64,000 nt of DNA from Nitrososphaerota archaeon (GCA_038845265.1 JAWBQR010000007.1:30278-94277), one strand, 5' to 3'; positions 15,387 through 40,484 are shown, counted from the stretch's first letter. Translations and numbers: made by a program. The notes: generated by a model from the sequence alone, not told the origin.

Positions 15387-15560
15387 TTATTCCTCTGCTT
15401 GTAGATTTAGGTTTCTACGTCTCTTTACCGGCAGTCCTAAGTCTCGTCTCACGAGGTCCTCGATGTATTCACTAATGATTATTCCGTCCCTATCCCTCTT
15501 CTCGTAGAGCATGTAGGCTATCTCCATATCAATAGATATCGACAGTACTGTCTTCGGCAT
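15387..15560 (-). CDS. ribbon-helix-helix-like small DNA-binding protein
   Basis: [11 protein letters not shown]...[13 protein letters not shown] pattern; divergent from portal. Confidence 0.6.
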
Positions 15561-15701
15561 CAATAAGAAAGACAAAACATGGAAATATTAATTTGGAGAG
15601 TATTGACTGAAAATGGTTTAGATTCACTCACCACCCTCTCCTCTCAATATTAACATTATATTAAGCATGTTATATTTAGGCCAATTTAATATAATTAGAC
15701 G

Positions 15702-17000
15702 ATGCTTGAAGCGTTGTTGTCGGCGGTGAGGCGGCTGGCCCGGCTGATGGGAAGAGATGGGGAGGAAGTGGCTGGGCCGAGTGGGTCCTTGGCGCTTCTG
15801 GGTGAGGGTTATGCTGGTGCATCGCCTGAGCCCGGATTGTCGGTTCTGGTTGACTGGTATAGAAGGGAGCCATATGTGAGATATGCGGTCGATGCATATG
15901 CCGGCAGAATAGCTTCTAAGTTCTACATCACTTCAAATGACCCTGAGGCGCTTAACTTCCTCATGATTTTCCTGAGGAGAAATAAGTTTTCATCGATTAA
16001 TCGACTTATCGCTAGGGATGTTGTTCTCTCGGGTAATGCTTTCCTGAATGTTGTCCCGGCATCCAGGATATCTAACCTGTATCTCTTGCCGCTCAGCAGC
16101 ATCTCAAGCATACTGAGAAATGATTCTGGAGAAGTCGTCGAGTATCTCCAGAATTGGGGAGGAATGATTAGGAGGCTTCCTCCGGAAGAGGTGCATCACT
16201 ATAGGTTTAATCCCATTGATAACGCCGCCTTCGGGGAGGGCCTGATAAATCACTTGACCCGGCCCGGGAGGGGCTACTTCAGGAAGGGCAGACAGGTCAG
16301 GAGGCCTCCGTTACTAGAGATCAAGGAGAGAATCGATAATGCTGCCAGGCTTCTTCTCGAGGAGATGCCGCCATTCTTCGTCTTTAAGGTCCCTCTCGGG
16401 AAGAGACGGGAGTTCTCGGAGACGTATAATCAGCTCCTCCCGGGCCAGCACGTTGTCATCGACTACGATGTCTTTGAGGTCAAGTCTTCTCAGGTCGAGT
16501 CTAGGACGAGGTTCTGGGAGCTCTGGGAATACCTCGATAGGCAAGTCCTGACTGGGCTGAAGAATCCATTAGTGCGTTTAATCACCTATACTGGCTTTAG
16601 CAGGGCATCCGCTGAGGCTGCTCTCGAAACTCTTGAGCCAGAGATATCGTCTATCCAAGAATTCCTCGGCTCAGAGCATGAAGCCCTGCTTAACAGGGTC
16701 CTAGAGAGCAATGGGTTTGACGTTGAGCTCGCTGATGTTAGGTGGAACTGGGCGAGTTCAGAGTTTCCAGAATGGAGCATTAGAGACGTGATAGATCTCT
16801 ATGAAGCAGGTCTCCTCGAGAGGGAGGAGGCCAGGACAATTATCAGGGAGCTGACCGGACTCTTCGTCGGAGCTGAAAGAGAGCATAACCTCCGACTCAT
16901 GAGTAGGGAAGAATCAATATACGTTTTATGGAACGGGAAAGTCTCCGCAGTCTCACCTGAGACTGCGATGATCCTCGAGGGGAGGATTAGAAATGCTTGA
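15702..17000 (+). CDS. phage portal protein
   Basis: YVRYAVDAYAG, VVLSGNAFLNVV and LPPEEVHHYRFN..AFGEG motifs typical of HK97/SPP1-like portals; first gene of head cluster. Confidence 0.85.
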   Translation: MLEALLSAVRRLARLMGRDGEEVAGPSGSLALLGEGYAGASPEPGLSVLVDWYRREPYVRYAVDAYAGRIASKFYITSNDPEALNFLMIFLRRNKFSSINRLIARDVVLSGNAFLNVVPASRISNLYLLPLSSISSILRNDSGEVVEYLQNWGGMIRRLPPEEVHHYRFNPIDNAAFGEGLINHLTRPGRGYFRKGRQVRRPPLLEIKERIDNAARLLLEEMPPFFVFKVPLGKRREFSETYNQLLPGQHVVIDYDVFEVKSSQVESRTRFWELWEYLDRQVLTGLKNPLVRLITYTGFSRASAEAALETLEPEISSIQEFLGSEHEALLNRVLESNGFDVELADVRWNWASSEFPEWSIRDVIDLYEAGLLEREEARTIIRELTGLFVGAEREHNLRLMSREESIYVLWNGKVSAVSPETAMILEGRIRNA

Positions 17001-18045
17001 GAGTAGGGTCCTCTCGTTTAGTTGGCTCGGAGAGATATCAGCAGAGCTGGCTGAAGGCATGATGCTTGCAGAGCTAATAGCAATACATGAGGGCGAGTCG
17101 AGACATCTTGGTACACCTAGGGAGCCCCGCATAAGGATTACCCGCGAAGAGATTATCAGGTCTGCAAGAACTCTCAGAGGAGCGTTGATAGACATCGACC
17201 ACGCATTATCAGACCCTAAAGTACAGCTCAGGGCGGAGTACTACCGTGAAAAGTATGGCCTAGGAACTTTGGGGCCAGTTGGTCAGGTGCTGGACGCCGA
17301 GGCTGAGGACAACCCTGAGGTCGGCGGCCTGGCTGTGGAGGCAGTTGCAAGCATCTGGGACAAGACTGTGTATAAACTCATCCAGGATGGAGTCTTTAAA
17401 GGATGTAGCGTCGTCCAGAAATACAGATTCGACAAGTGTGTCCAGGGCACTTCATATGTCTGTGACGCCGTCGGTGTTAGTTATCCGATGGTCTCGCTTG
17501 TGCTCGAGGGCGAGCCTGCGTTTCCAAAGACGACCGTGAGGCCGCTTAGAATTGATAGAATCAAGCAAGGAAGACTGCAGGAGATAAAGGTACCGACTAG
17601 AATCGCAGGCATCTCAATTCATTACTCATATTCTCCATGCTCTGGATTCAGCAGAAGACTCTTAGAGACAAGTCAAGTAACCGTAAGGCCGACCGGAATG
17701 ATTGAAGCATCACCCATCTTTAAAGAGAATAAACCATGCGATCACTCAGGCTTCATCGATTCTCTCAAAAAGTTTGACTCACAGACCCCACACATGATTC
17801 CAACCCAAATATACCTCGATCTGATGAGGTCAGCCCTTGCTGAGACCTCCGATTGTGGGCACCGAGAATTAGTCATGGCATGGATGCCGCCGACAACTAT
17901 GGCCTACATGCCGGCGTGGAGGCTCCTATCATTCGTGTCTTGGCTCAGAAAATCTCTGGGCTCCCCCCAGACCGCTCTGCAGCTGCACGGCGGCTGGAGA
18001 GGGGGTGATGCAGAAAATTGGATAAATCCCCAGAACAAAGATTAG
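16993..18045 (+). CDS. prohead maturation protease, possibly with scaffold extension
   Basis: IDIDH, VGQVLDA, KGCSV and VSLVLEGEPAF resemble assemblin-fold prohead proteases; located between portal and capsid. Confidence 0.7.
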   Translation: MLESRVLSFSWLGEISAELAEGMMLAELIAIHEGESRHLGTPREPRIRITREEIIRSARTLRGALIDIDHALSDPKVQLRAEYYREKYGLGTLGPVGQVLDAEAEDNPEVGGLAVEAVASIWDKTVYKLIQDGVFKGCSVVQKYRFDKCVQGTSYVCDAVGVSYPMVSLVLEGEPAFPKTTVRPLRIDRIKQGRLQEIKVPTRIAGISIHYSYSPCSGFSRRLLETSQVTVRPTGMIEASPIFKENKPCDHSGFIDSLKKFDSQTPHMIPTQIYLDLMRSALAETSDCGHRELVMAWMPPTTMAYMPAWRLLSFVSWLRKSLGSPQTALQLHGGWRGGDAENWINPQNKD

Positions 18046-18488
18046 GACAGCTGATATACAGGTCCGGAGAGAGAGCGACGGCAATCGTTAAGGCTGGAGC
18101 AATTGCCTTGACTGGTGGAGAGCTACTACGTGTCGGAGACAACGACGGCGAATTGACAGTCGCAGATAGTGGCGACATAGTAGTGGCCGTTCTTGGAGAC
18201 GGGCAGACAATTCAGCCAAACACATCCGCCTACGCAGCAGTCTACTATCTGGGAAACGTTTTCAAGTTACGAGCGGCGGGCCAGGTCCAGAGGGGAAGCT
18301 GGGTCAAGGCAGGGATAGGCGGCAGCGTGGTCCAGGCAGAAACAACGGTAAGCATTCCTAGCGGAGCAGTACAAGTAAGCAGTACATCGGCGCAGCCATC
18401 AATGGTGGTCGAAGGATTCATAGGCATAGGAGTTGCCTTGGACGAGGCTGAGACTGCTGGAGACTTCATAAGGGTGGTGATGAAGTGA
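18018..18488 (+). CDS. capsid cement/decoration protein (DUF2190-like)
   Basis: Small Ala/Gly-rich beta protein ending IGVALDEAETAGDFIRV, next to the major capsid gene. Confidence 0.7.
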   Translation: MDKSPEQRLGQLIYRSGERATAIVKAGAIALTGGELLRVGDNDGELTVADSGDIVVAVLGDGQTIQPNTSAYAAVYYLGNVFKLRAAGQVQRGSWVKAGIGGSVVQAETTVSIPSGAVQVSSTSAQPSMVVEGFIGIGVALDEAETAGDFIRVVMK

Positions 18489-19495
18489 TGAGTGAATCAA
18501 TAAACGAGGTATTATCAAGCCTCGGGCAGCTCTATCCATGGTACTTCAGGGAGAGAAGATGCATCACGATGATTGATGCATATGAGGGCAGAGATTCTAG
18601 GCACGAGGGAATAATTGAAAGAATAGTGACGAACAAGTTCCTGCAGAGGGCTAGGCAGTTCCTCTATACGGGAAGCGAGGCAGGCGCGTTAGGGCAGGTC
18701 GTAAGCGACGTCCTCAGGGCCGCATATCCTGAACAGATCGGAAGAGAAATGGTGAGAATATATGAGAGTAGGGAGCCAAAGATAAGGATTCCATCGATTC
18801 CCAGGCTAGTTGCGTATAGGGCGGGCCCAGGAGCAACCGTGCCGCCGACAACGCCAAACATAACCTACATCGACCTCGACGTGAATGCCCCATCGCAGGG
18901 AGCAGTATTCAAGGCAAGGAGCGAGTGGGACATAAGCTTCGTTACCGCAGCTAACTGGGAGGCTGTGAGAGAGATCACTGCAAGCATAGGCTCGGCCATC
19001 GCGCTCGAGGAAAGCAAATTCATACTGTCATGTCTCAGGATGATCAGTGATGAGGAGCTCGCGGGAGGCGGCCCAATTAGTCTAGGAGATGCTCCAATAA
19101 CTTTTGATGACATATTGGATTTGAAAGGCGCGGTCGATGGTGAGGAGAGAGCGCCTACTGGAAGGGACTACAAGTGCTTCCTCCACCCAAAGAGGGCGAT
19201 AGATCTGCTGAAGGACCAGAAATTCATTAACTCGATGATATGGGGCCAAGCGGTTAATAAGGAGAGAGGAGAGATTGGTGTCGCGGCTGGTATAAGGTTT
19301 TTCCAGAGCAGCCTGATACCTGAGGGTGAGGTCTGGCTACTAAACCCCGAGAGAGCCGTCGCGATGCTGATACACATAGACCTAACAGTCGAGCCGATCG
19401 AGACCAGCAGCACCACGAGCGGCGTCGAGGGATACGAATACATAGCTGCGAGAGTGCTTGATGGAAAGGCCGTCGCGAAGGGTACAATACCCTAG
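18485..19495 (+). CDS. HK97-fold major capsid protein
   Basis: 336 aa; ITFDDILDLK, FLHPKRAIDLLKD, IGVAAGIRFFQSSLIP and RVLDGKAVAK; context of portal and protease. Confidence 0.85.
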   Translation: MMSESINEVLSSLGQLYPWYFRERRCITMIDAYEGRDSRHEGIIERIVTNKFLQRARQFLYTGSEAGALGQVVSDVLRAAYPEQIGREMVRIYESREPKIRIPSIPRLVAYRAGPGATVPPTTPNITYIDLDVNAPSQGAVFKARSEWDISFVTAANWEAVREITASIGSAIALEESKFILSCLRMISDEELAGGGPISLGDAPITFDDILDLKGAVDGEERAPTGRDYKCFLHPKRAIDLLKDQKFINSMIWGQAVNKERGEIGVAAGIRFFQSSLIPEGEVWLLNPERAVAMLIHIDLTVEPIETSSTTSGVEGYEYIAARVLDGKAVAKGTIP

Positions 19496-19505
19496 AAGCA
19501 GCAGG

Positions 19506-19709
19506 ATGATTCATGAACGTGAGCCGAGGCTGATAATCTATGTCTCGGAGGAGATTCATAAGAAGTTGAAAGTGCTCTCCGCAAGTAGTGGGCTGACAAT
19601 GGGCATGCTTTCAGACGCCTTCATCAATTACGTACTCAGGAACAAGGAGCTGACTAGGCGTCTCATAGAGGACATGGGTGGGAGATGGATTGAGCAAGAA
19701 GAAACATAG
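19506..19709 (+). CDS. ribbon-helix-helix-like small protein
   Basis: RLIIYVSEEIHKKLKVLSASSGLTMGML pattern. Confidence 0.65.
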   Translation: MIHEREPRLIIYVSEEIHKKLKVLSASSGLTMGMLSDAFINYVLRNKELTRRLIEDMGGRWIEQEET

Positions 19710-19872
19710 CCTCAGTCCAGGACGAGAGACAACCCTCGAAGGCATAGCAGTCATATCGCTGACCTACGCACTAAACACATTCATCAATGGAGAGGTCACG
19801 GTCGGCGCTGCTCTTGCTGCTCTCGGATTGTCAATAATCTACCTGAAGTATAGGCTGAGAATTAAGGAATGA
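19678..19872 (+). CDS. small two-TM membrane protein
   Basis: Two hydrophobic helices and a basic C-terminus; overlaps both neighbours. Confidence 0.6.
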   Translation: MGDGLSKKKHSLSPGRETTLEGIAVISLTYALNTFINGEVTVGAALAALGLSIIYLKYRLRIKE

Positions 19873-20825
19873 GCTGCCTAGCGGTATTACTCATTCTTAC
19901 AATACTTCAAGCATCAGTTATTACGCAGAGTGAGAATTTTATCGGCGTCTTATCTGGCCCGGAGAGGAGTGGAGAGCAGCACCAATACGTGATAGACATT
20001 GAGCCAGGCACATTACTCATAGTCTCCGTCTCCTTCAAGTCTCTTGAGGGTGTCGGCGCAAGGATATACGCAGCTATCAGTGAGCCAAGTGGAGGAAACT
20101 ATGCCTATGCTGATGAGCTTCTAGCTTCCTCTTCTTCCAGAACGTTGAATCTAAGCTACTACTTCGGCTCCTCGACGGATGCTAGAAATGTGAGGCTGCT
20201 GGTCGGCTCGGTTGCTGATAGATATGCGCCGGCTCTTATCAGGTATGACTTGACTGTTCATCGCTACAGACTGCTAGACATGGGGCTAGCGGATGCAGGT
20301 GATAGTCTAGAGGCGCCGCTAATGATAGACCTTATAGATGGAGAACGAGCCGACGACGCCCATATACTCAGCATTAATGGATACCTCTCCCCCTCGGGGC
20401 TGGGAAATGACCATGCTGACTATTACTTGATTCGTCTGCCAGTTAAGGACGACTATGTAGTGAGCGCCGAGATAATGGGTGACTCCTCATCGCTGATCAA
20501 TGCATACATCAGGCTCAGTGATGGCTATCCAGTGAGCAGAATCTCAGGTAGTGGCATTACTGCGATGCTGAAGAACGCTGGCGAGTTCTTAGTCTCGGTC
20601 GAGACTTACGGAGCATCTTCCTCAATCATCAGCTATAACTTGACGCTCAGAGTATCGAGGCTCAGCAACTATGTGGAAAACGAATCCAGATGGGCACTGA
20701 TAAACCTAGACATAGTCGTCGCTGCGCTGCTTGGATTAGCAGTTGCCCTGCTCCTGATGTATGCTACTGGCATCTGGGTTAGCGCGGGAAAGGATAGAAA
20801 GACACTAGCATCGTCATACCTCTAA
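19869..20825 (+). CDS. membrane-anchored secreted beta-sandwich protein
   Basis: Signal peptide, DAGDS...GYL..DHADYY (PPC-like), C-terminal TM. Confidence 0.65.
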   Translation: MSCLAVLLILTILQASVITQSENFIGVLSGPERSGEQHQYVIDIEPGTLLIVSVSFKSLEGVGARIYAAISEPSGGNYAYADELLASSSSRTLNLSYYFGSSTDARNVRLLVGSVADRYAPALIRYDLTVHRYRLLDMGLADAGDSLEAPLMIDLIDGERADDAHILSINGYLSPSGLGNDHADYYLIRLPVKDDYVVSAEIMGDSSSLINAYIRLSDGYPVSRISGSGITAMLKNAGEFLVSVETYGASSSIISYNLTLRVSRLSNYVENESRWALINLDIVVAALLGLAVALLLMYATGIWVSAGKDRKTLASSYL

Positions 20826-20863
20826 TCTCCCACGAGGAGTCATCAACCATAAAGAATTAATTT

Positions 20864-23800
20864 ATGGATAATCATATCTCAGCAGTAATGCGGGCATCCA
20901 CGCCGCTGGAGCTCTCAAAGTACTATGAATACATCACCTCTAGGGTGAAGGAGGAGTATGAACTGGCCTCTAGGGTCAGGGCTGAGACGGGCTCCCCTGT
21001 CCCTGTAGTTGAGGTCTCGCTTCCATCCGATATGGCTGAGAGGGTCGAGGTTCTAGTAGGGCCTCGCGGCGTAGCCTCCCTGATAAGGGACCTCCTCGAG
21101 AAGTGCGATGAGGACATACTGCCATTCAGGTTAGCGGAGACACTGCTGAAGAGGTATGATAGAATCAATGACGATGCCCTAAGCCAGGTCTTGAAGGTCT
21201 CATTGGCTGTCATGACTCCTCCATGCATAACGGCTGCTCCAACCGAAGGCATCACAGGAGTAAAGATAAAGAAAAACAATGACGGCTCAAATTATCTTGC
21301 CGTTTATTTTGCTGGGCCTATTAGGTCGGCTGGCGGAACCGAGATTGCTGGCGCGGTGGTGCTTGCGGACTACATCAGGCGGCTCGCCGGCATCAGTAAG
21401 TATCAGCCGACAGACCAGGAGGTAAGGAGATACATCGAGGAGCTTAGGGTGTACCGAAGAAAGGTTGGGCGCTTCCAGTACAATGTCCCGGACGAGATAG
21501 TTGAGTTTGTCTTGAGAAGACTGCCCATCGAGATTACAGGGGTCGCTACAGACCCGATACCTGTGCCTGCGTATAAGGACTTACCGAGGGTCGAGACGCC
21601 CTATCTGAGGGGAGGAGCCCTGAGGGTGCTGAACGACGGAGTAATAGGCAGGGCCAAGAAGGTCCTAAAGATAGTCAAGGTCAGCGGGCTGGATGGCTGG
21701 GAGTGGCTTGAGGAGGTTGCCGCCAAGCTCAGCGAGGCCAAGTCAACTGGAAAAAACACTGGCCTAGACGACGTTGTTGGAGGCAGGCCGGTCCTCTCAA
21801 CTCCAGGGAGATTTGGAGGATTCAGAATAAGGTATGGCAGGGCACCGACGACATCGATGGCGGCGCTAGGAATTCATCCATACACTATGAGACTCATGGA
21901 GAACTTCGTTGTAGCTGGAACACAGCTGAGGATTGATTATCCCGGGAAGGGAGGAATAGCGGTGCCGGTCAGTAGCATCGAGCCCCCCGTCGTCATATTT
22001 AGAGACGGCTCAGTCATGAGAATAGACAATGAGGAAAAACTCGCAGAGGCAGAGAGATCAGAGTACAAGATACTATTCAACGGAGACATACTCATAAGCT
22101 TTGGAGATTGTGTTGAGAATAATGTAAAGCTTCAGCCGCCGGGATACTGCGAGGAGTGGTGGATACAGGAGGCGCTGCTCGAAGAGTCTCGTAAAGGACG
22201 TCTCAGCGACGAGGACCGCAGGTGGCTTGAGAAGATTCGGAGAGACCCGTACCGTATCATTCCGCCAGTGGAGGTTGCATGTAGGATAAGCCATAAGCTC
22301 GGCGTACCGATTCATCCCAGATTCATGCCATTCTGGGACCGTATCTCTGGAAGGGAGATTGAGAGGCTCAGGAGGTGGCTTGCCTCAGCGATACCTAAAG
22401 CTAGGAAGGGCTGGGGCATGTTAATACTTGACTATGACCCAGAGGCGAAATCCATACTTGAGAAGATGCTGATAGAGCACTTAGTGCTTGACCACAAGAT
22501 AGCGCTTGACCTTCACTGGGTCAAGTCCCTTAACTTTCTGTTCAGACCATTCATCAGGGTAGACGTCTCCAAGTCATCCGTGCCTGAGTTGATTAGTTCT
22601 CTGTCTGGGACATCCTTCAGGCCTAGAATGGGTAGCACGGTCTCAGCGAGGGTGGGCAGGCCTGAGAAGGCTGGACAACGGAGAATGAAGCCGCCGGTTC
22701 ATGTACTCTTTCCAGTAGGGATGGCCGGTGGCCCCCAGAGAGACATAATCACCGCAGCAAATACTAGGTCAGTTGTCCTCGAACTCGTCAGGAGGGTGTG
22801 CCTAACATGCGGAGAGAAGACATGGATGAACAGATGCAAGCACTGTGGAAAACCAACAGCAATGATGGCGGAGTGCCCCAGATGTGGAGCAGAATACATC
22901 GAGCCCGAGCAGGAGAAGTGTCCAAGATGTGGAGAAGAACTGAAGAGGACTTGGAAACAGCTCGTCAACTTGAAGGAACTCTACGAAAATGAGCTCATGA
23001 AGGCATATGAGCCTCCACCCCGAGTCCTCAAGGGCGTAAGGGCATTAACTAATAAGTCAAAGCAGCCCGAAGAGCTCTTAAAGGGAATTCTTAGGGCAAA
23101 CCTGGGACTTTATGTCTACAAGGATGGGACGATAAGATTTGACGCCGTTAATGCGCCGTTGACACACTTTACTCCCTCACAGATAGGTGTAAGCCCAGAG
23201 AGGCTCAGGGAGCTAGGCTACGAGAGAGACATATTTGGACAACCACTCGTCTCGCCGCACCAGATATGCGAGCTCCGAATACAGGACATAGTCGTCCAGA
23301 GAAGAATGGCTGAACATCTCTTCAACGTCTCAAAATTCATAGATAAGTACCTCAAGATAAATGGCTTCGATGAGTACTACAAGCTCCAGAGCGTCGAGGA
23401 CGTTGTAGGAATAATGGTTGCAGTCTTGTCGCCCCACACCTATGGAGCCGTCGCCTGCAGGGTAATAGGAATCACGGATGCAAACGTCCTCTATGCCCAT
23501 CCATTACTTCACGCAGCTAAGAGGAGAGACTGTGACGGAGACGAAGACAGCGTAATGCTACTATTAGATGTCTTCATCAATTTTAGCAGAGAGTACCTCC
23601 CAGACAGGATAGGCGGAGCAATGGATTCCCCCCTCCTCCTGACAGTGAAGGTTTATCCCGAAGAAGTTGACGAGCAGGCCCATAACGTCGATACTGCTTG
23701 GATTTATCCACTGGAGTTTTATGAAGCCGCGTCAAGGAAGGAACCCGCGTCAAGACTGATAGGAGTCATTCCAATAATCAAGAATTATCTCAATTATCCT

Positions 23801-25100: not shown

Positions 25101-25104
25101 CGCT

Positions 25105-33162: not shown

Positions 33163-33187
33163 CTAAGAATAATCATATCAAAAGCCA

Positions 33188-33222: not shown

Positions 33223-33237
33223 GATAACAAATTAAAA

Positions 33238-33645: not shown

Positions 33646-34069
33646 CTCTGCTTCTTTTGGTTCTTTAATCTCTTCTTCGCTACGTGTGAGTATAGTACGA
33701 GGTCTAGGAGCAGGTCTCTGAGTTCTCCGTTTAGTATCTCGCTGGGCCTGGCTCCGAATGTCTCTCCCAGCACGACGAGCGCCTCAACTATTCCCGGAAA
33801 TTTTCGACTAGTCTATACGCGTCTCTGACGGCTCTTTCTTCGATCTTCATAAGTGCTATTATCAGGAGGGGCTTATGCTCAGGCCTATCCGGAAACGGCT
33901 TGACACAGATTTCTAATACTTTGTCAACAATTCTCTCTAATTCTTCACCCATCTTTAGTGCCTCTTCTAGATTGCTCGGAGACGTGAGCTTCTGGATCAG
34001 TGAGAGGAGAGGCCACGCTCTAGCCTTTGTCTCGAGCTCGTACTCCACGTCGTCTATCACTATCTTCAT
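33636..34069 (-). CDS. tail assembly chaperone, long (GT-like) product via predicted -1 frameshift
   Basis: Slippery A-AAT-TTC at 33797-33803; -1 frame open to TAG at 33636-33638. Confidence 0.75.
33788..34069 (-). CDS. tail assembly chaperone (G-like)
   Basis: 93 aa directly downstream of tail tube, MKIVIDDVEYEL start. Confidence 0.75.
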   Translation of the reverse strand: MKIVIDDVEYELETKARAWPLLSLIQKLTSPSNLEEALKMGEELERIVDKVLEICVKPFPDRPEHKPLLIIALMKIEERAVRDAYRLVENFRE

Positions 34070-34080
34070 TTGTCTCGGCC

Positions 34081-35016
34081 TCAGTATCCTGGGTCAGTGT
34101 TCTTCAGTGATATGGATATTGATGGTTCAGATAGAGTTCTAAGGGCCCTCATCTCTATTTCCTCGACGAGCAGCTCCCTCGCGTCTATCTCAGCGGTGTG
34201 GGAGTCATAGACAACTCTCGGCATCTCTATTATGAGTTGGTAACTATGCCCCTCGGCGCCAGGTATCTCGGGCCCAGTTAAATTAATCCTCATAGAGGTC
34301 TCCGACCCTGATAAGAATTCCTCAAGCCTCGAGGATGTGAGGAACCTCGCCGACAGCTTGATGTCGACGCTGTACTTCCTCGGCGACAGTCTCTGCAACA
34401 CGTTGCTTCCGACTACGAATTCATCGTCACTTAGGCCATTCTCTAGCGATAGTTCAAGCTTCTTGATGAATACTGCTTCGCCTCCGAGTGTGAGTGAGGT
34501 CTCGGTCGGCAGCCAGTTCCTGACAGATGGATAGCTCGGGATGCTCGGAGTAGTTATGTCCATGTCCCTGCCCAGCAGTTCGCTCCTCATTGTCGGTGCC
34601 TCGCCTGCCTCGAATATGAATTCAATCTTACCAACTCCGCATCCTATGAATCTCTCGGCGATTCCATCAGCCGCGACTATCACTGTATAGGGAATCACAT
34701 TGTTGCTCGGCGTGAAGGAATGAAGATATGCAGTCGAGGATTCTATCTGTGTGGTTGTTGCTCCTCCGAAGAAGCTGTTGAGGAGTTCTCCAATCATTGA
34801 TGGGTTTAGCCTCTGCTCTATTCCTCCCTTTACGGTTCTGAGCCCCTCTAATGCGCTTGAATACTCGATGTAGCTGATATTGTCCTCGTCGTATATGATT
34901 TCTTTCTCGAGGTGGAGGTCGCATGAGTCTACGTGTATGTATTTGAAGCCACTCGTTGCCGGCGTATCTATGCTGGCCTGCCTGGCCAGCGCTACATATC
35001 TTGTCCAACTACTCAT
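34081..35016 (-). CDS. tail tube protein (non-contractile type)
   Basis: YLHSFTP, FIGCGVGKIEF, LSLENGL and LIIEMPRVVY; no sheath gene nearby. Confidence 0.85.
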   Translation of the reverse strand: MSSWTRYVALARQASIDTPATSGFKYIHVDSCDLHLEKEIIYDEDNISYIEYSSALEGLRTVKGGIEQRLNPSMIGELLNSFFGGATTTQIESSTAYLHSFTPSNNVIPYTVIVAADGIAERFIGCGVGKIEFIFEAGEAPTMRSELLGRDMDITTPSIPSYPSVRNWLPTETSLTLGGEAVFIKKLELSLENGLSDDEFVVGSNVLQRLSPRKYSVDIKLSARFLTSSRLEEFLSGSETSMRINLTGPEIPGAEGHSYQLIIEMPRVVYDSHTAEIDARELLVEEIEMRALRTLSEPSISISLKNTDPGY

Positions 35017-35079
35017 GTAGGCTCACCCCCTATATCCCCAGCCGGGCTTTCCCATGACTGGATGGACGGAGGCGGCAAA

Positions 35080-35511
35080 CTATGCCTCAACTCTCACAGA
35101 CACCGTCTGGACAAGCATGTGCCCAAACTCTCCCCGACTATTCCTAGTCTGCGACAGTTCATACTCTACTCCGGGCTCCGCATCGACGAAGAATGTTCTT
35201 ATACCGAGGCTCGGGTCGGACAGTATTGCGTCATATATCGACCAATGTATCCTGACGGCCTCGTCATAGCTCTCCTTATAGTCAGCGCTCAGGGTCTCTA
35301 TGACTATCTCGAAGACCCAGTTATGGAGCCTCAGCCCCGAGCCCACAATGTGTCTCTGCGAGCTCCCCCTCCTAGCAATTATCCTCACGCGTGGATACGA
35401 AGCCCTCCCAGGCTCAACTCCAGCATCAACGAGCCTAGCAAGGCCGAGGCCGGAGACCAGGTCTTTTAGCGCAGTCTCCACTATTCTAAACCTCTCCTCA
35501 GCGAGTCCCAC
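35080..35511 (-). CDS. tail terminator / completion protein
   Basis: 143 aa upstream of tube; YPRVRI, IYDAILSDPSLG. Confidence 0.65.
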   Translation of the reverse strand: MGLAEERFRIVETALKDLVSGLGLARLVDAGVEPGRASYPRVRIIARRGSSQRHIVGSGLRLHNWVFEIVIETLSADYKESYDEAVRIHWSIYDAILSDPSLGIRTFFVDAEPGVEYELSQTRNSRGEFGHMLVQTVSVRVEA

Positions 35512-35887
35512 GTCTCCTCGACCTCCTTCCCCGACTACGATTCAGCCTGATGAAAAAAGCAGCGATCAGGGCAGTGATGAATAGTGCTGCGGCGAGTGGC
35601 GTGAGTAGTATTCTGGACCTCTTGAAGGACTCGTCCATGGCTGATAGATACGCAATGAATGCTCCGAATCCACCCGAGGCAGCGACGGCCACCCTCTTGA
35701 ATCCATGACTAATGAGGCTCAGCCTCCAAGCCGAGTATGCAAGCATTATGACAAAAAAGAGCGAAGAGACAGCGAAGACTGGCAGGAGCATCGAGTACAA
35801 TATTCGTGGGAGGGCTCCAGCAGTTATTGTGATTATTAGTAGCGCCGCCGAGGCTCCAGCGATACATGCTAGTAGTCGCTGCTTCAC
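35498..35887 (-). CDS. four-TM membrane protein within tail operon
   Basis: Four hydrophobic helices and an Arg-rich C-terminus. Confidence 0.6.
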   Translation of the reverse strand: MKQRLLACIAGASAALLIITITAGALPRILYSMLLPVFAVSSLFFVIMLAYSAWRLSLISHGFKRVAVAASGGFGAFIAYLSAMDESFKRSRILLTPLAAALFITALIAAFFIRLNRSRGRRSRRRGTR

Positions 35888-35890
35888 TTC

Positions 35891-36229
35891 TTATTCTCCC
35901 CCCGTGAGTGTTGCTCCTCCGGCCTCTCTCGAGATAAGGCTCTGCCTCAGCTCTCCAAGTATCTCCCTGATCTCTCTCCAGAGGGACTCTCTTACTGAGT
36001 TTTCCCGGCTGTTCCAGATTAGGTAGAGGTCTGCAGCGATGTCTGCGCTTATCCTTCTCAGCAGCTCGGGGCTTGTTGTTGCAGGTGTGAGTCCGAGCTC
36101 TCTATGGGTCTCGTCTATCATTGAGTCTGCCTGAGATATGAACTGCAGTATCTCCTGGTCGCATGAGTTGTCCTCGGCGCTCAGCCCGAGCCTAACAACC
36201 TTCACGTCCTCGATCGATGAGTAGGGCAT
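35891..36229 (-). CDS. head-tail adaptor protein
   Basis: MPYSSIEDVK...FISQADSMIDE...LLRRISADIAA typical of gp6/gp36-like adaptors. Confidence 0.8.
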   Translation of the reverse strand: MPYSSIEDVKVVRLGLSAEDNSCDQEILQFISQADSMIDETHRELGLTPATTSPELLRRISADIAADLYLIWNSRENSVRESLWREIREILGELRQSLISREAGGATLTGGE

Positions 36230-36253
36230 CTACCAATAATTTACAAAATCGAT

Positions 36254-36284
36254 GTTATTATAATTTGAGACATAATTAATTATT
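36254..36284 (-). promoter_or_regulatory. TATA-like box plus AT palindrome in the divergent tail/packaging promoter region
   Basis: Minus-strand TTATAATAAC about 25 nt before ATG 36229; palindrome ATAATTAATTAT at 36272-36283. Confidence 0.4.
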
Positions 36285-36332
36285 TAATGATTCAGAAGAA
36301 AATATATTCATCCATAAGTGGGTTATTGATAG

Positions 36333-36740
36333 ATGAGTCGCAGATTCATCATAAGTAAGTATCCGAGGATCATTAAGGACTGGCTGGAGGTCTTTGAGAA
36401 GAATCTGTCAGTGACTAGGGAGCTTCGTCTTGACGAGTATGTCAAGGTCATATGGCTAGATGCTTGTAGTATTCCTAAGGTTCCGCATGGGACTGATCCT
36501 CTTGACGCTCCGATTGCGACGAGGACTGAGACGCCTGGAAGGTTTCTTGGGGTCTACTTGGATAAGGAGTATGGGCTTCCTCACTTGGTTATTGTTACTG
36601 AGAGGTCTGGTGAGTTGGAGCACTGGACGAGTATTCCGATGCCGATTGTGAGGAGCATAATTAAGCTGACCGAGGTCGAGGCGAAGAAGGCTAGGGCTTC
36701 GTTTGTCAGGATTAATGCGTCGGAGGCGATGGATGGTTGA
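36333..36740 (+). CDS. hypothetical virus-type protein
   Basis: First gene of packaging operon; VKVIWLDA...IPMPIVRSIIKL. Confidence 0.6.
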   Translation: MSRRFIISKYPRIIKDWLEVFEKNLSVTRELRLDEYVKVIWLDACSIPKVPHGTDPLDAPIATRTETPGRFLGVYLDKEYGLPHLVIVTERSGELEHWTSIPMPIVRSIIKLTEVEAKKARASFVRINASEAMDG

Positions 36741-36961
36741 GGACTGCTAATAGGATTGAGCGGCATGGGAGGTTCATCGTTAAGGCAGGGGCCTTTAGGC
36801 TAAATGTGACGCGTTATGACTACTATGCCGTTATTATCTCTGCCTTTGCCGGCGCGGTGATTTACCTGACGCTTAGTGGGAGGCTTGAGGATGCATTGGT
36901 CTTGACCTCGCTCCTGAGCGGCGTTGGGCTCTCTGAGCTCTTGAGGAGGCTTGAGCCGTGA
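36737..36961 (+). CDS. small two-TM membrane protein
   Basis: Hydrophobic helices; 4-nt overlaps with both neighbours. Confidence 0.55.
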   Translation: MRTANRIERHGRFIVKAGAFRLNVTRYDYYAVIISAFAGAVIYLTLSGRLEDALVLTSLLSGVGLSELLRRLEP

Positions 36962-37467
36962 ATAAGACTCAGAGGATACTTAGTCTGGCGAGGGATGGTA
37001 AGGGAGCATACGAGATATCCAAGGAGGTCTATGGAGACACCTCGAGACGCAGCCTCAATAGAGTCTGGGTAATACTGAACAGACTAGTCAAGCGTGGACT
37101 GTTAAGCAAAAATCAATCAAAGGAGCAGCTGCTTAACAGTAGGCTCGACGAGCTTAGGAATAGGGTCAAGGCGCTTCTGACCAGCGAGAAATCTCCCCTC
37201 AAGGGCGAGAGGGCCAGGTATATCGGTGTTCCGACTTGGAGCGAGATGGTCGTTGAGGTAAGGGAGATAGCGTCAGAGGCCTACGCACTGGCGCAGGAAG
37301 TAATCAGGCAGGGAAACCTGAGGCTTGCGAGGCAGTACCTCGAGCTGGTTCTGAAATGCATGTCTGAGATCAGGCATGAGCGGAGAGAGCTCGACCTAGA
37401 GACGCTGAGCAGAATCGTTGAGGGCGTTAGGAGCGAGCTCAGCGATGAGCGCTCCAAGGCTGAGTAA
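36958..37467 (+). CDS. HTH protein, candidate terminase small subunit
   Basis: N-terminal HTH, helical C-terminus; overlaps terL start. Confidence 0.55.
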   Translation: MNKTQRILSLARDGKGAYEISKEVYGDTSRRSLNRVWVILNRLVKRGLLSKNQSKEQLLNSRLDELRNRVKALLTSEKSPLKGERARYIGVPTWSEMVVEVREIASEAYALAQEVIRQGNLRLARQYLELVLKCMSEIRHERRELDLETLSRIVEGVRSELSDERSKAE

Positions 37468-39037
37468 GAGCCAATTATGGAGAGCGGTTGGAAAAATTAG
37501 CATAGAGCTAGAGGAGAGACATATAGAGATTCTTAGGTCGCTGGCAGAGTACTTGGCACGCGTTGCTGGCTCTCACAAATTATTCTCGAGGATTATTCGT
37601 AGGATTCGGCCAAGGACACGGGAGGAGCTGCTTGAGTTAACGGGCCTCTATGAGAAGATTAGCCGCTTCTCCGTAGAGGAGGCTAGGAGGCCGGGCATAT
37701 TCATAGAGCTATTCACGAGGTTTAGGCCCACGAATTATCAGGCAAAGCTGATTGAGGATGAGTCCCGAATGATCGCGGTGGCGGCATGCAGGCAGAGCGG
37801 AAAGACAACCGCCATAGCTCTCAGGCTTATCCATCTAGCGATAATAAATCCAGGCAGCAGGACATGCATAGTCGCTCCGAGCTTCAGGCAGGCGAGGAAA
37901 AGCATCAGGAAGCTAAAGGAGCAGCTCGACCTTTTTCTCTGGACTGCTAGGAGGGCATTCGTGTCTGAGGAGCTTAAGACCATCGTGAAATTCACGAATG
38001 GAAGCGTCATAGAGGCTCTCCCAAACGCGATCGAGCGGCTGCGTGGCGAGACTTACAACTACTGCTACCTAGACGAGTTCAGCTACTTCATTGATGATGC
38101 TGAGTTATTAGAGGGTGTATTACTGCCGAGCATCGCTACTCAGTGGGACAGGGACGCGAGAATAATTGTCAGTAGCACGCCCTGGAGGAGAGATGGGCTC
38201 TTCTACAAGATATTCAACGATCCCCAAGAGAAAAAGAGATGGAGCATTCATAAATGGACCTGGCGGGAGGCCGTGGCTGAGGGTATAATCTCCGATGAAT
38301 TCATTCGTCGTGAGATGACAAGTAAGGACCGGAGCTTCTTCATGAGGGAGTATGAGGCAGAGTGGGTTGGAGACGAGGATAGCTGGCTAAGTCTCAGCCT
38401 CATAAACTGTAGCCTCGACCCAGATCTCTCTTGGTGGACTGAGGACACGCCAATTAATGGCAGGGAGCTCTACGCCGGCCTAGACCTAGGCAAGAGAATG
38501 GACAATAGTGTCCTAACTATCGTCGAGAGGCTTGGAGAAGACCTATACGTAAGGCTCGTGAAGATATGGCCCCTCGAGACAAGCTATAGCAGTATTGTTG
38601 GGCAGCTCAAGCGCCTCACGAATAACTGGAGGACGGTCTTCAAGGTCGCAGTAGACATTACGGGCGTCGGTGAAGCAGTCTCAGAACTGATAAAAGACTC
38701 AGCCATCCAAGGATACGTCGGCGTAGTCTTCACTTCTAGAATGAAGGAAGAACTAGCAACCGTATTGAAGCAGGTCATGATGAGTGGATGCAAGATGGAT
38801 GATGCGGGCAGATGGACAGGCACCTCAACCCTACACATACCGGCAAGGAATAACACCCAGCTCACAGAGGAGGTAGTTGCCCAGCTAAACGCAGAGAAGT
38901 ATGAGGTGGCTGCTGATGGGAGTGTCAGATTCTATCACAGCCCGAACGCTCGGGTCGATGTCTTCTGGAGCATGGCGCTGGCAGTCTATGCAAGTAGAAT
39001 GAAGAGCGTCGGCGGAGCGACGGTCCTGCATGGTTAG
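37445..39037 (+). CDS. terL: terminase large subunit
   Basis: CRQSGKTT Walker A, LRGETYNYCYLDE Walker B, SSTP, FMREYEAEW, nuclease GLDLG and AVDITGVG. Confidence 0.95.
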   Translation: MSAPRLSKSQLWRAVGKISIELEERHIEILRSLAEYLARVAGSHKLFSRIIRRIRPRTREELLELTGLYEKISRFSVEEARRPGIFIELFTRFRPTNYQAKLIEDESRMIAVAACRQSGKTTAIALRLIHLAIINPGSRTCIVAPSFRQARKSIRKLKEQLDLFLWTARRAFVSEELKTIVKFTNGSVIEALPNAIERLRGETYNYCYLDEFSYFIDDAELLEGVLLPSIATQWDRDARIIVSSTPWRRDGLFYKIFNDPQEKKRWSIHKWTWREAVAEGIISDEFIRREMTSKDRSFFMREYEAEWVGDEDSWLSLSLINCSLDPDLSWWTEDTPINGRELYAGLDLGKRMDNSVLTIVERLGEDLYVRLVKIWPLETSYSSIVGQLKRLTNNWRTVFKVAVDITGVGEAVSELIKDSAIQGYVGVVFTSRMKEELATVLKQVMMSGCKMDDAGRWTGTSTLHIPARNNTQLTEEVVAQLNAEKYEVAADGSVRFYHSPNARVDVFWSMALAVYASRMKSVGGATVLHG

Positions 39038-40484
39038 ATTATGGATTCAGCAGATACGCGGAAGACCAAAGATACTCGTCAAGATTGACAAGAGCTTTCC
39101 AGTCAAGGCAAGCATGACGAGGAGAGTGCTCGAGGTCTCACACGCATTCGGCATCGATATAGACGAGGAGAGAAAACATACAATATACAGTGGATTCATG
39201 CTCGAGATAAACCCGGGAGACATCATCTATATAACTGGCGAGAGTGGATCGGGAAAGAGTGTCCTTCTAAGAGAGATTTCAGGAATACTTTCCCGTCGCA
39301 GAGAGTTCGGAGGCGTCGTGATGGACAGGGAGCTCATGATCGATGATGATGAAGTAATCATTGAGGGCATCGGTAGAGATACATCTGAGGCAATAGAGAT
39401 ACTAAACTCTGTCGGCCTAGGTGAAGCTTTCCTATTTCTAAAGCGGTATATAGAGCTCAGCGACGGACAGAAATACAGGTATCAACTAGCGAAGGCTCTT
39501 TGCATGGGTAGAAAGACGATAGCGATGGATGAATTCTGCTCGACGCTTGACAGAGATACTGCAAAAGTTGTGGCATACTTATTCCAGAAATACGTGAGGA
39601 GGAACGGCATGACACTGATCGCTGCGACTACCCATAGAGACCTCCTAGAGGATCTGAGACCAACAGTCTTGGTGGAGAAGAAGCTGGGGCCAGATGTGAA
39701 TGTTAGCTACTATACATGGCAGGATGGTCCATGCAGTCTCATGAAAGAAATAACTATCGAGCCCGGAGACTTATCCGACTATGAAGCTCTCTCAGGATTT
39801 CACTATAGAGGCAGGAAGCCTCCATGCATAGCTAAGATCTACAGAGCCGTAAGGAATGGAGAGCTTTGCGGAGTAATTGTTTATGTATCCGCAATCACGC
39901 ACCCACTTCTCAGAGGCAGACACATAGTCTTCCCCCAGCTACTAGAAATTTACCGCACACGAGGCCTTAAGAAGCTGGTAGAAGTGATCAAAAGAAATAT
40001 CTTGAGGATAGCTAGGGTCGTCGTATATCCGAAGTATAGAGGCATCGGGCTTGGGACTCGACTGGTGAGGGAAACCATGCCGCTGACGGAATATCCAGTC
40101 ATCGAGGCACTAGCAGTAATGGCGAGGTACAATCCATTCTTCGAGCGCGCAGGACTCAGAAGAATCAGCTACGATACAAGCCTAGACGAGCAGAGAAGAC
40201 GACTCATTTTTAGACTGCAGGAAGAGTTCCCAGACCTAGACGCCGAATCCATATCGGAACCCAGCTACATCTCCAGATACGTCGAGAACCTCAGCATAAA
40301 AAGACTCAAGAAACTAGTCAAAATTGTCTCGAAGACATTGACACAGCCACCGACCAAGCTGAGAAAAAACACAAGAAAAATAAGGACAAGAAAGGAACTA
40401 GTAAAAATGCTATTATCATTGAGGCTTCCACCCATATACTATGTCTGGAAAAACCCCGCAAAAAAGCCAGAATGGGAAGAATAA
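39030..40484 (+). CDS. ABC-ATPase / GNAT acetyltransferase fusion
   Basis: GESGSGKS, LSDGQKYR, MDEF; then FHYR and IARVVVYPKYRGIGLG (acetyl-CoA motif). Confidence 0.88.
   Translation: MVRLWIQQIRGRPKILVKIDKSFPVKASMTRRVLEVSHAFGIDIDEERKHTIYSGFMLEINPGDIIYITGESGSGKSVLLREISGILSRRREFGGVVMDRELMIDDDEVIIEGIGRDTSEAIEILNSVGLGEAFLFLKRYIELSDGQKYRYQLAKALCMGRKTIAMDEFCSTLDRDTAKVVAYLFQKYVRRNGMTLIAATTHRDLLEDLRPTVLVEKKLGPDVNVSYYTWQDGPCSLMKEITIEPGDLSDYEALSGFHYRGRKPPCIAKIYRAVRNGELCGVIVYVSAITHPLLRGRHIVFPQLLEIYRTRGLKKLVEVIKRNILRIARVVVYPKYRGIGLGTRLVRETMPLTEYPVIEALAVMARYNPFFERAGLRRISYDTSLDEQRRRLIFRLQEEFPDLDAESISEPSYISRYVENLSIKRLKKLVKIVSKTLTQPPTKLRKNTRKIRTRKELVKMLLSLRLPPIYYVWKNPAKKPEWEE

Follow-up and report, generated by a model that had tools for sequence, protein, structure and literature searches.

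Intact virion and packaging genes of tailed-virus type were found in the chromosome of a hot-spring archaeon, where they are split into two blocks by a segment of host backbone. Gene content and comparison with relatives point to a host-inherited, siphovirus-type remnant whose virion and packaging genes have been selectively kept and which is most probably gene transfer agent (GTA)-like, a reading that we regard as probable on balance. It appears quite likely that the element is domesticated and selectively maintained; that it may be a true GTA, packaging and transferring host DNA, is suggested by its genes at somewhat less than even confidence. The sequence data themselves show which genes are present and that these are intact, split into blocks, contiguous with host DNA, co-diverging with host genes and under purifying selection.

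Organization of the Element and Its Host Segment

The host was identified as a Calditenuaceae archaeon (Caldarchaeales), in agreement with an earlier assignment to the TACK archaea, and is represented by a genome assembled from a metagenome in 34 contigs (G000). Together with G001 and G002 it forms the genus g1; the other genera compared include Calditenuis (g2) and Terraquivivens (g6), the latter belonging to another family. Within the window, by which the whole analysed stretch of 64,000 nucleotides is meant, the virus-type genes occupied a head block (Block 1, 15384-20837) and a tail and packaging block (Block 2, 27663-40439), flanking 6.8 kb of host backbone (20838-27662). The sequence-only reading had described three oriented gene groups, and both these and its coordinates were found to be correct: head genes on the plus strand (15702-19495), tail genes on the minus strand (27666-36229) and packaging genes on the plus strand (36333-40484).

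The host segment, which has the same gene order in G002, contains the genes of PolD DP2, GGGP synthase, Elf1, tRNA-Gly(CCC), a 207-aa ORF, a membrane protein and a CBS/zinc-finger protein. DP2, PcrB/GGGPS, Elf1 and the tRNA, all named from the sequence alone, were borne out by Pfam and ARAGORN, and the first three genes adjoin each other in most relatives; the product of the supposed dolichol kinase-like gene (26370-27227) matched no family and is a membrane protein, for which six membrane-spanning segments are predicted. As proposed before, the set cannot excise as one unit, because this segment splits the blocks. In tetranucleotide distance, the blocks fell at the 74th-95th percentile and the intervening host segment at the 88th, so that composition was uninformative.

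None of the 20 block ORFs matched integrase, primase, helicase or polymerase families, and no direct repeats of at least 12 nt were found at the block borders, which upholds the earlier statement that the blocks hold no integrase, primase, helicase or att repeat. The nearest integrase-like ORF (63496-63999) is 23 kb distant from the blocks, and no motif of at least 10 nt was common to the region upstream of the portal gene and the divergent promoter region. A temperate provirus is a contiguous, att-bounded unit that carries genes for integration (integrase or transposase) and for replication or lysogeny; the element does not fit this definition, since it consists of two blocks with host backbone between them and holds no integrase gene, att site or replication gene. 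By these families and repeats, the blocks have no recognised means of self-replication, integration or excision, as in a GTA.

Head Genes

The tailed-virus (Caudoviricetes) character of the element is indicated by its TerL, portal and capsid proteins, which are homologous to tailed-virus families. The portal protein (15702-17000, plus strand) matched phrog_9232 (E 1.2e-8), PF04860 was matched by six of ten family members, and the protein shares 85% identity with its G001 counterpart at a dN/dS of 0.066. It is followed by a 350-aa head-module protein (16993-18045, plus strand), possibly a prohead protease, which was kept in g1 and Calditenuis and had no match in Pfam, PHROG or PDB; its former label of protease is reduced to weak Atlas leads to S77/S78/S80/DUF2213 folds. 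The next product (18018-18488, plus strand; dN/dS 0.065) had been called a cement protein, whereas its match was to a head scaffolding family (phrog_673, E 1.3e-4), and it is described here as scaffolding-like.

The major capsid protein (18485-19495, plus strand) matched phrog_267 (E 6.2e-6), and members of its family matched three "major head protein" PHROGs (7, 4 and 4 of 10 members); phrog_2522 and phrog_1650 also belong to the families that identify the capsid protein. It is 89% identical to its G001 counterpart, with a dN/dS of 0.061. Of the earlier designation as an HK97 capsid, the identity as major capsid protein was therefore retained through the PHROGs, but the HK97 fold was not, as the profile found no match in the PDB. 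Block 1 also contains a fast-evolving protein (19869-20825, plus strand) with a signal-like N-terminal segment and a C-terminal hydrophobic segment, both recognised by hydropathy, which is 51-53% identical in G001 and missing from G002.

Tail Genes

The names first given to the portal, tail tube, tape measure, gp10, frameshifted chaperone and TerL genes were backed by family searches or, for the chaperone, by a -1 heptamer. All tail genes lie on the minus strand. The tail tube protein (34081-35016) indicates a non-contractile tail and was matched by PF18906 (E 8.9e-21; 75 bits against a cut-off of 27) and phrog_290 (E 1.9e-32). The tail assembly chaperone (33636-34069) comprises a main ORF (33788-34069) and an overlapping -1 extension ORF (33636-33812) adding 50 aa; a canonical -1 heptamer, A_AAT_TTC, is placed 13 nt upstream of the chaperone stop and was kept in G001, and in Terraquivivens the chaperone likewise has an extension of ~51 aa in another frame. 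The tape measure protein (31762-33162) matched 16 tape-measure PHROGs (best E 1.5e-13), and the HK97 gp10-like tail completion protein (33238-33645) matched phrog_5 (E 6.7e-12) and PF04883 (29.3 bits, cut-off 21.4).

Other labels had to be loosened. The tail hub/baseplate protein (29902-31761), of which 21 of the 41 relatives have a counterpart (34-69% identity), had a YQBQ-like match (E 2.9e-4) that falls below the cut-off, as does the Mu Gp36 match (E 1.2e-3) of the head-tail adaptor-like protein (35891-36229), the gene of which adjoins TerL in Calditenuis. The distal tail/tip protein (27917-29905) matched two unnamed PHROGs (phrog_877 and phrog_5986) and a choice-of-anchor R domain; it is the large gene with the lowest conservation (55-58% identity in G001) and its product is probably receptor-binding. 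The presumed terminator (35080-35511) had no family match and is retained as a 143-aa candidate neck/tail protein kept in g1, Calditenuis, Terraquivivens and a further genus, g3. Two small products complete the group: a 129-aa protein with four predicted membrane-spanning segments by hydropathy (35498-35887), kept in Terraquivivens, and an 81-aa protein with coiled-coil Pfam matches (27666-27911).

Packaging Genes and the ABC-GNAT Partner

The large terminase TerL (37418-39037, plus strand) has ATPase and nuclease domains and matched PF03237 (53 bits), PF17289 and phrog_2 (E 4.3e-46); G128, K129, D219 and E220, which we take to be Walker A and Walker B residues, are among the invariant columns of its alignment. 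Three small genes precede it on the same strand. The first encodes a 135-aa protein (36333-36740), modelled as a small beta-barrel flanked by helices (pLDDT 82) with no fold match at E<=0.001, whose gene was found upstream of TerL by synteny in g1, Terraquivivens, g3 and one metagenome locus. It is followed by a 74-aa protein with one hydrophobic segment by hydropathy and a weak holin PHROG match (36737-36961; E 0.0075) and, directly upstream of TerL, by a 169-aa protein with an all-helical model (36958-37467; pLDDT 72). The last had been put forward as a TerS candidate; its model gave no significant fold match, the protein has a weak match to tail assembly chaperones (TAC), and a small-terminase role is possible. 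The head, tail and packaging set is thus the complete virus-derived one expected of a GTA, although no small terminase was identified from fold searches of the 135-aa and 169-aa models.

Downstream of TerL lies a gene for an ABC-type ATPase fused to a GNAT acetyltransferase (39030-40484, plus strand; PF00005, weak PF00583). Linkage of this gene to TerL or to tail genes was seen in loci of Caldarchaeales, of Bathyarchaeia and of IMG/VR, and the ABC-GNAT protein is a constant, conserved and unexplained partner of this TerL clade. When 50,697 phage records were compared, the closest TerLs included those of Pseudomonas phage B3, Pasteurella phage AFS-2018a, Halogranum tailed virus 1 and Methanobacterium virus PhiF1, the nearest sharing 24-28% identity and the best match not exceeding 27.7%, and the capsid protein had no match in the same records; by sequence, no cultured virus appears to be close to the element.

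Distribution among Relatives

In the congeneric G001, all 30 ORFs were found in the same order, with protein identities of 42-90% for the element and 65-89% for the backbone; the layout is thus not confined to one strain. In G002, of the same genus, both block sites are empty and lie on a single contig. Its collinearity with the window by blastn stops at 15383 and resumes at 20838, then stops at 27662 and resumes at 40440, so that a P-type ATPase gene adjoins DP2 and the CBS gene adjoins an aminotransferase gene. The host can therefore do without the element. Within g1, the branching order was weakly supported ((G000,G002) at 58/8, with (G000,G001) not rejected, AU p = 0.258), and gain after the split of G002 is as plausible as loss in G002.

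The portal profile was found in 7 of 15 genera of the order, and in none of the eight g4 genomes and none of the 18 genomes of family f4. Dispersal differs among genera. In Calditenuis the genes occupy at least three loci (head, tube and tape measure; adaptor, TerL and ABC; and the hub gene elsewhere), and in Terraquivivens a distance of ~90 kb, within a single contig, separates the head genes from those for the tail and TerL. At least half of the window's sampled words were contained in 16 public runs.

Selection and Phylogeny

Between G000 and G001, 20 genes of the element had dN/dS of 0.052-0.364 and ten genes of the backbone 0.065-0.261, values obtained at saturated dS. Closer pairs were available in the other genera. 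In Calditenuis (G006 vs G008), 11 element genes had dS of 0.17-0.44 and dN/dS of 0.09-0.28, and three host genes dS of 0.24-0.28 and dN/dS of 0.12-0.19; in Terraquivivens (G029 vs G035), the corresponding values were 0.35-0.55 and 0.018-0.127 for eight element genes, and 0.37-0.40 and 0.059-0.066 for two host genes. The element genes are under purifying selection and have diverged together with the host genes within genera. This agrees with the sequence-only reading of an intact, host-resident set, dN/dS being 0.018-0.364 over the three genera.

In trees of the portal, capsid, tape-measure and tube proteins, genera were monophyletic and branching within Calditenuis agreed with the DP2 tree; the portal tree, (g6,(g3,(g1,g2))), equals the host family tree. 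In the TerL and ABC-GNAT trees, g1 grouped with Terraquivivens, Bathyarchaeia and IMG/VR sequences and not with Calditenuis, a mosaicism expected of viruses. The expected congruence with the host thus held for the head and tail genes and failed for TerL and ABC-GNAT. Between g1 and Calditenuis, capsid identity was 36% vs 56% for DP2, whereas within genera the capsid is conserved at least as well as DP2. Since the capsid is far more diverged than DP2 between genera, related viruses may have been acquired separately by each genus. Inheritance with the host under purifying selection, as in a GTA, was therefore found within three genera and partially above the genus level. The element can no longer be seen as a fixed host organ, as one congeneric genome is without both blocks and the history of the packaging module differs from that of the host.

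Proposed Function and Competing Explanations

In the proposed GTA-like particle, the head block would yield portal-bearing procapsids with the assistance of the scaffold, and the TerL motor, perhaps together with the small upstream proteins and ABC-GNAT, would fill the capsids with DNA. Packaging may proceed by headful, as judged from the nearest cultured bacterial TerLs, which come from what we take to be Mu-like phages with headful packaging. The tail block would provide a non-contractile tail composed of tube, frameshifted chaperone, tape measure, hub and tip. The particle would carry mostly host DNA, and it would be unable to propagate the element, because replication and integration genes are absent and the set is split by host genes. 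The term GTA is used by inference, since the formation of particles, their DNA content, release and transfer are all proposed on the basis of the genes.

Other explanations draw on the same observations. Viral contigs misjoined to host DNA during assembly or binning could be suspected in a metagenome-assembled genome of 34 contigs, but the layout of G001 is identical, the junctions at 15383, 20838 and 27662 (three of four) were bridged at even depth by contigs from independent runs of other studies, and a 13-kb metagenome contig was 100% identical over the ATPase, head block and DP2. The misassembly feared at the junctions was thus not found, and such an artefact is highly improbable. A defective provirus in slow decay, having lost its integrase and replication genes and been rearranged, with remaining genes useless to the host, would account for both empty sites in G002, for the pseudogenes of G020 (six stops in TerL, one each in the capsid and portal genes), for G023, with a TerL fragment only, for G003, in which TerL, ABC and hub genes are present and no head genes were found, and for the patchy presence of the portal profile in 25 of 76 genomes of the order. 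Nevertheless, none of the 20 element ORFs is broken in either G000 or G001 despite saturated dS, dN/dS stays at 0.018-0.28 at host-equal dS in Calditenuis and Terraquivivens, and the programmed frameshift site has been kept; open frames are not expected of neutral DNA at such divergence, which leaves decay quite unlikely.

A comparably low probability was given to a live virus or helper-dependent element, still mobilised, for example with the aid of a helper virus or through some unrecognised mode of integration, for which the intervening host genes would be incidental. Such an element would explain why TerL and ABC-GNAT trees mix Caldarchaeales, Bathyarchaeia and IMG/VR contigs, why Atlas clusters with the ABC and GNAT domain pair are 48-60% viral, and why the portal has 375 metagenome relatives, and regions of this kind are named Mu-like prophages where earlier papers mention them (PMC10547907). 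However, many of those portal relatives are carried on contigs as long as 147-861 kb and are thus chromosomal, the element occupies the same chromosomal site in two species and two or three distant loci elsewhere, its dS equals that of host genes in Calditenuis and Terraquivivens, block ORFs and borders are without integrase or replication family matches and repeats, and no excision joints were seen in DNA contigs, although contigs would miss rare variants. Domestication for a use other than transfer, in which the particles or parts of them might act as killer particles, as a delivery device or to hinder related viruses, was considered rather unlikely. Selection was demonstrated and its object was not, the tip protein is the fastest-evolving, as expected of a surface-recognition part, the presence of another, paralogous element in this genome suggests diversification, and killer particles are named as an alternative in the pertinent part of Abby et al. 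2018 (PMC5797428). Against this, portal, capsid and TerL are intact and among the best-conserved and most constrained genes; they would be superfluous for a tail-only weapon such as a tailocin, and their conservation indicates DNA-filled heads.

Comparison with Known Systems

Parallels to a maintained GTA-like element are found in established agents. RcGTA is characterised by vertical inheritance, purifying selection, losses in some lineages and genes in more than one locus, and the VTA of Methanococcus voltae is an archaeal precedent, a tailed particle carrying host DNA. To our knowledge, GTAs have been proven only in a few bacterial groups and this one methanogen. Like the element, the RcGTA of Rhodobacter capsulatus, together with its relatives in the Alphaproteobacteria, consists of head, tail and terminase genes of viral origin and has no genes for replication or integration; such agents are the subject of PMC10883770 and PMC7947584. 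Homology between the element and RcGTA is limited to shared tailed-virus fold families, and the element differs in its high-temperature archaeal host, its ABC-GNAT partner gene and a much patchier distribution. RcGTA is defined by host regulators and a small capsid, and VTA, from a different archaeal phylum, by experiment (as cited in PMC5797428), whereas the window element is defined by sequence. Although the presumably Mu-like phages B3 and AFS-2018a and the archaeal tailed viruses named above have the nearest TerLs, the element, unlike them, has no replication or integration family match and a chromosomal position fixed in two species.

A possible GTA-like nature has already been proposed for related head-tail elements by Krupovic et al. 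2019 (PMC6563490) and Abby et al. 2018 (PMC5797428). According to the sections concerned, these elements, CalSub-Pro of Ca. Caldiarchaeum subterraneum included, have no integrase, att sites or replication genes, and the sequence-only view of an undescribed particle was therefore given up; CalSub-Pro belongs to the same order. CalSub-Pro, Nvie-Pro1 and NCAV2-Pro1 (of Ca. Caldiarchaeum, Nitrososphaera and Nitrosocaldus, in the same archaeal class as the window host) likewise have a full morphogenesis module; they are described there as single loci, in contrast to the split around DP2 seen here. In those accounts the idea for Nitrososphaeria/Aigarchaeota was a remark on single genomes, to which the present comparison adds evidence of the same site in two species, host-equal synonymous divergence, strong constraint, dispersal and ongoing losses.

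A Second Element and Its Implications

The same genome carries a further element of this kind, in one contiguous piece, on contig C14 (2939-22544). Its genes are collinear with a cluster in G024, a family f4 genome assembled as one contig, and the proteins share 40-55% identity; we suspect this cluster to be of the CalSub-Pro kind. Its TerL (TerL2) shares 24-28% identity with that of the window, and it has a homologue of the 81-aa coiled-coil protein, homologues of which adjoin the hub and TerL2 genes.

Tentatively, and with less confidence than for the window element itself, the Caldarchaeales may possess two old paralogous GTA systems, both tailed-virus derived and host-inherited over genus-to-order timescales: a split type 1 spread over two or three loci, to which the window element belongs, and a type 2 that forms one cluster, as seen on C14 and in most genomes of the Caldiarchaeum family. 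The two types would have the ABC-ATPase-GNAT protein in common, which might then be a previously unnoticed component of the packaging or control machinery. If true, GTAs would here be seen for the first time in TACK archaea and at high temperature, and they would provide a route of gene exchange among uncultured hot-spring archaea.

Gene content of the head, tail and packaging blocks

An ORF map and family searches of the window, which is C7:30278-94277 of a 1.37-Mb genome (34 contigs), bore out the ORFs that the sequence-only reading had assigned to head, tail and packaging. The head genes (15702-19495, plus strand) encode the portal (phrog_9232, E 1.2e-8, with PF04860 matched by six of ten family members), a 350-aa protein to which no family was assigned, a scaffolding-like protein (phrog_673), and the 336-aa major capsid protein (phrog_267), whose family hits three PHROGs annotated 'major head protein'. 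The tail genes (27666-36229, minus strand) comprise tip, hub, a 466-aa tape measure (16 PHROGs), gp10 (PF04883, over the cut-off), chaperone, tail tube (PF18906, E 8.9e-21), and three small neck or membrane proteins. The packaging genes (36333-40484, plus strand) include three small ORFs, TerL (PF03237, PF17289 and phrog_2, E 4e-46) and a fusion of an ABC-ATPase with GNAT. The chaperone gene carries a -1 slippery heptamer of textbook form, A_AAT_TTC, 13 nt upstream of its stop codon, from which an overlapping ORF gives a further 50 aa.

Some of the names initially proposed did not stand. The protein taken for a cement protein resembles a scaffold instead, on its match to phrog_673, and no library searched gave backing to the labels 'protease', 'terminator', 'TerS' and 'dolichol kinase-like'. 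The capsid and portal family profiles found no match in the PDB, and single-sequence PDB searches with the 350-aa protein and the ORF at 36958-37467 returned nothing useful. Since neither AlphaFold model of the small packaging ORFs 36958-37467 (pLDDT 72) and 36333-36740 (pLDDT 82) had a fold match at E<=0.001, no small terminase was assigned. The head block also harbors a 318-aa ORF (19869-20825), signal-like at its N-terminus and hydrophobic in a segment near the C-terminus, which is the quickest-evolving sizeable gene of this block (51-53% identity to its copy in G001, a congeneric species) and found no match in family searches.

No integrase, primase or helicase had been seen in the blocks, and the family searches agreed, adding that no polymerase family occurs among the block ORFs. 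Likewise, the block borders presented no direct repeat of at least 12 nt, in line with the reported lack of an att repeat; neither att-like repeats nor shared promoter motifs of that length were found, and tetranucleotide distance did not distinguish the blocks from the intervening host segment. This segment contains, as first described, PolD DP2, PcrB/GGGP synthase (GGGPS), Elf1 and a tRNA, here identified as tRNA-Gly(CCC), together with a CBS/zinc-finger gene and a protein predicted to cross the membrane six times.

In the public DNA runs X9 and X12, the bin of the tRNA-Gly(CCC) gene (26294-26369) showed a depth ~10 to 150 times that of its neighbors, and loose ends at this gene led into unrelated sequence in all four runs; this excess is expected for a tRNA common to many organisms, and integration there is not indicated. 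Contigs from the RNA libraries X17 and X18, both of one study, lay on portal, capsid, hub, gp10, tube and host genes; contigs do not demonstrate transcription and DNA may be present in such libraries, so that these matches are not counted as evidence, and the uncovered parts carry no meaning. A 1342-aa ORF downstream of the element (41022-45050, plus strand) was taken to be spurious: it lies opposite two real genes, those for the aminotransferase and the aldehyde dehydrogenase, and had no match in a family search. It is probably a by-product of strand composition, the local GC skew being about -0.26.

Split layout and empty sites

Misassembly at the block junctions, which would make the split layout an artefact, was ruled out by synteny with G001, by independent bridging contigs, and by an identical 13-kb metagenome contig. 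All 30 ORFs of the series that begins with the P-type ATPase and ends with the aldehyde dehydrogenase recur in G001 in the order of the window, and the arrangement is thus not confined to a single strain. Three of the four junctions (15383, 20838 and 27662) were bridged at even depth by contigs that DNA runs of independent studies had yielded, none of which joins across a block. The 13-kb contig is identical through the ATPase, the head block and DP2, and support at junction 40440 comes from G001 only.

In a third species of the genus, G002, a single contig places the ATPase gene next to DP2 and the CBS gene next to the aminotransferase gene. Its nucleotide collinearity with the window covers 9536-15383, 20838-27662 and 40440-62633, and these breaks delimit the element (hereafter type 1), with its roughly 18 kb of genes, as two blocks precisely: 15384-20837 and 27663-40439. 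Everything from DP2 to the CBS gene is host backbone; DP2, GGGPS and Elf1 are adjacent in most relatives. Among the three species, G002 was nearest to the window's genome (G000) in seven of nine backbone proteins, but in a tree of the trio (1,506 columns) this pairing had support of only 58/8, and a grouping of G000 with G001 was not rejected (AU p = 0.258). The element may therefore have been lost from G002, or G002 may have branched before its arrival. Under loss or late gain alike, the type 1 element is dispensable, since both sites are empty in G002.

Selection and inheritance

Between G000 and G001, all 20 element ORFs are open, and dN/dS ranged from 0.052 to 0.364 in the 20 element genes and from 0.065 to 0.261 in ten backbone genes, at a dS that is saturated (0.7-2.6). 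Capsid (0.061) and portal (0.066) were constrained on par with DP2 (0.068). Two closer species pairs with unsaturated dS were chosen in other genera. In Ca. Calditenuis (G006 and G008), which shares the family Calditenuaceae with the window's genus, 11 element genes showed dS of 0.17-0.44 and dN/dS of 0.09-0.28, against 0.24-0.28 and 0.12-0.19 for three host genes. In Ca. Terraquivivens (G029 and G035), which belongs to another family, the values were 0.35-0.55 and 0.018-0.127 for eight element genes, against 0.37-0.40 and 0.059-0.066 for two host genes. The equal dS indicates that element and host genes diverged over equal time, and the low dN/dS that the element proteins are in use; instead of relaxed selection, purifying selection was found in all three pairs.

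The expected agreement between element and host trees held in part. Genera were monophyletic in the portal, capsid, tape-measure and tube trees, which also reproduced the branching of the DP2 tree within Calditenuis, and the portal tree agreed with the host family tree. However, TerL and ABC-GNAT disagreed with the host: those of the window's genus cluster with Terraquivivens and not with Calditenuis, and in the TerL tree also with Bathyarchaeia and IMG/VR sequences. TerL is 48-54% identical to that of Terraquivivens versus 28-31% to that of Calditenuis, the corresponding values for DP2 being 50-51% and 55-57%. On these sequence comparisons, the packaging module was exchanged at some point.

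Patchiness and dispersal over loci

Of 76 genomes searched in the order Caldarchaeales (formerly Aigarchaeota), 25, representing 7 of 15 genera, matched the portal profile, which was absent from all genomes searched in genera g4 and g9 (eight each) and in families f4 (18) and f2 (four). Decay was observed in two relatives: in G020, six stops interrupt TerL and a single one interrupts each of the capsid and portal genes, and a mere piece of TerL is left in G023. In G003, TerL, ABC and hub genes are present, and a search for head genes found none. Within genera, the capsid is as conserved as DP2, but between the window's genus and Calditenuis it is 36% identical compared with 56% for DP2, and different genera perhaps took up related viruses separately. 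Given this patchiness, the TerL/ABC exchange and the capsid divergence, domestication is well supported at genus depth, and a shared ancestry spanning both families is only suggested.

Calditenuis has the homologous genes at three or more sites. At one, beside a P-type ATPase, the head genes are opposed to those for tube, chaperone, gp10 and tape measure; at another, an adaptor gene faces TerL and ABC-GNAT; and the hub gene is at a separate place. The tail genes and TerL of Terraquivivens face each other like those of the window, with ABC-GNAT behind the tip gene and the head genes ~90 kb off on the same contig. In a further genus (g3), TerL, tail, portal and ABC occupy one stretch, 9 kb from DP2. 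A genome so scattered is not packageable by a virus, but its genes are still usable by the host.

A capsid gene facing a portal gene on the opposite strand was a recurrent arrangement in metagenome loci (L221-L233 and others). Some contigs with it measure 147-861 kb, which indicates that chromosomal copies of this head module are widespread beyond the 76 genomes searched.

The ABC-ATPase-GNAT fusion (39030-40484) travels with this TerL clade in Caldarchaeales, Bathyarchaeia and IMG/VR contigs, with further loci at L032, L036, L073-L083, L235, L244, L261 and L287. It is often more conserved than TerL (41-50% versus 27-31% between the window's genus and Calditenuis, g3 or g4). A place for it in a known defence system was considered and then dropped, its PADLOC matches being only to generic ABC-ATPases.

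A second head-tail element

Outside the window, contig C14 (2939-22544) carries a second, contiguous head-tail cluster (type 2) with head genes, tube, gp10, tape measure, hub, a counterpart of the window's 81-aa coiled-coil protein and, at the contig end, a second TerL; G000 thus holds two paralogous virus-derived sets. The cluster is syntenic, at 40-55% identity, with one in G024. This genome, of another family (f4), consists of a single contig and shares 49% identity with the window in DP2. The type 2 TerL clade is clearly apart from type 1, occurs in the window's genus and in g4, g7, g9, g10 and g11, and usually lies 12-16 kb from an ABC-GNAT gene. G001 (82% complete) and G002 (89% complete) gave no hit for either TerL or hub of type 2. 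The C14 element is probably of the kind named CalSub-Pro by Krupovic et al.

At the end of the window's contig (C7), an ORF open at its 3′ end (63496-63999, plus strand) aligns with the opening half of the phage integrase family (PF00589, 36 bits) and continues in frame into 127 nt shared at 100% identity with C14:21819-21945, within the second TerL. These shared nucleotides may reflect a connection of C7 to C14 in the assembly graph or, alternatively, the border of an integrated element with its attachment site in the second TerL.

Relation to known viruses and interpretation

The element has no near relative among cultured viruses: in a set of 50,697 phage records, the best TerL match reached at most 27.7% identity, and the capsid protein had zero matches. 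The nearest bacterial TerL hits are presumably Mu-like phages. Earlier genome papers named such regions of this order Mu-like prophages (PMC10547907). A Mu-like transposable prophage was rejected here, in that no replication or integration family turned up in the searches with the block ORFs and the site is shared by two species. A tailocin, in turn, was rejected on the conservation of head and TerL genes. A 2025 preprint described Caldarchaeales viral structural genes as horizontal transfers, with no mention of GTAs or of domestication (10.1101/2025.08.23.671958). A GTA was called a 'distinct possibility' for CalSub-Pro, Nvie-Pro1 and NCAV2-Pro1 in PMC6563490 and PMC5797428; the literature search found just these 2018 and 2019 remarks as GTA claims for this order, and no later paper naming CalSub-Pro.

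Judged from comparative sequence data, the best-supported reading is that the type 1 genes constitute a genuine domesticated head-tail element of a known, GTA-like kind, for which gene transfer is a candidate role. In this lineage such a kind had only been guessed at, and what is new is the evidence from comparison among relatives, the splitting of the element into blocks, and ABC-GNAT as a partner gene.
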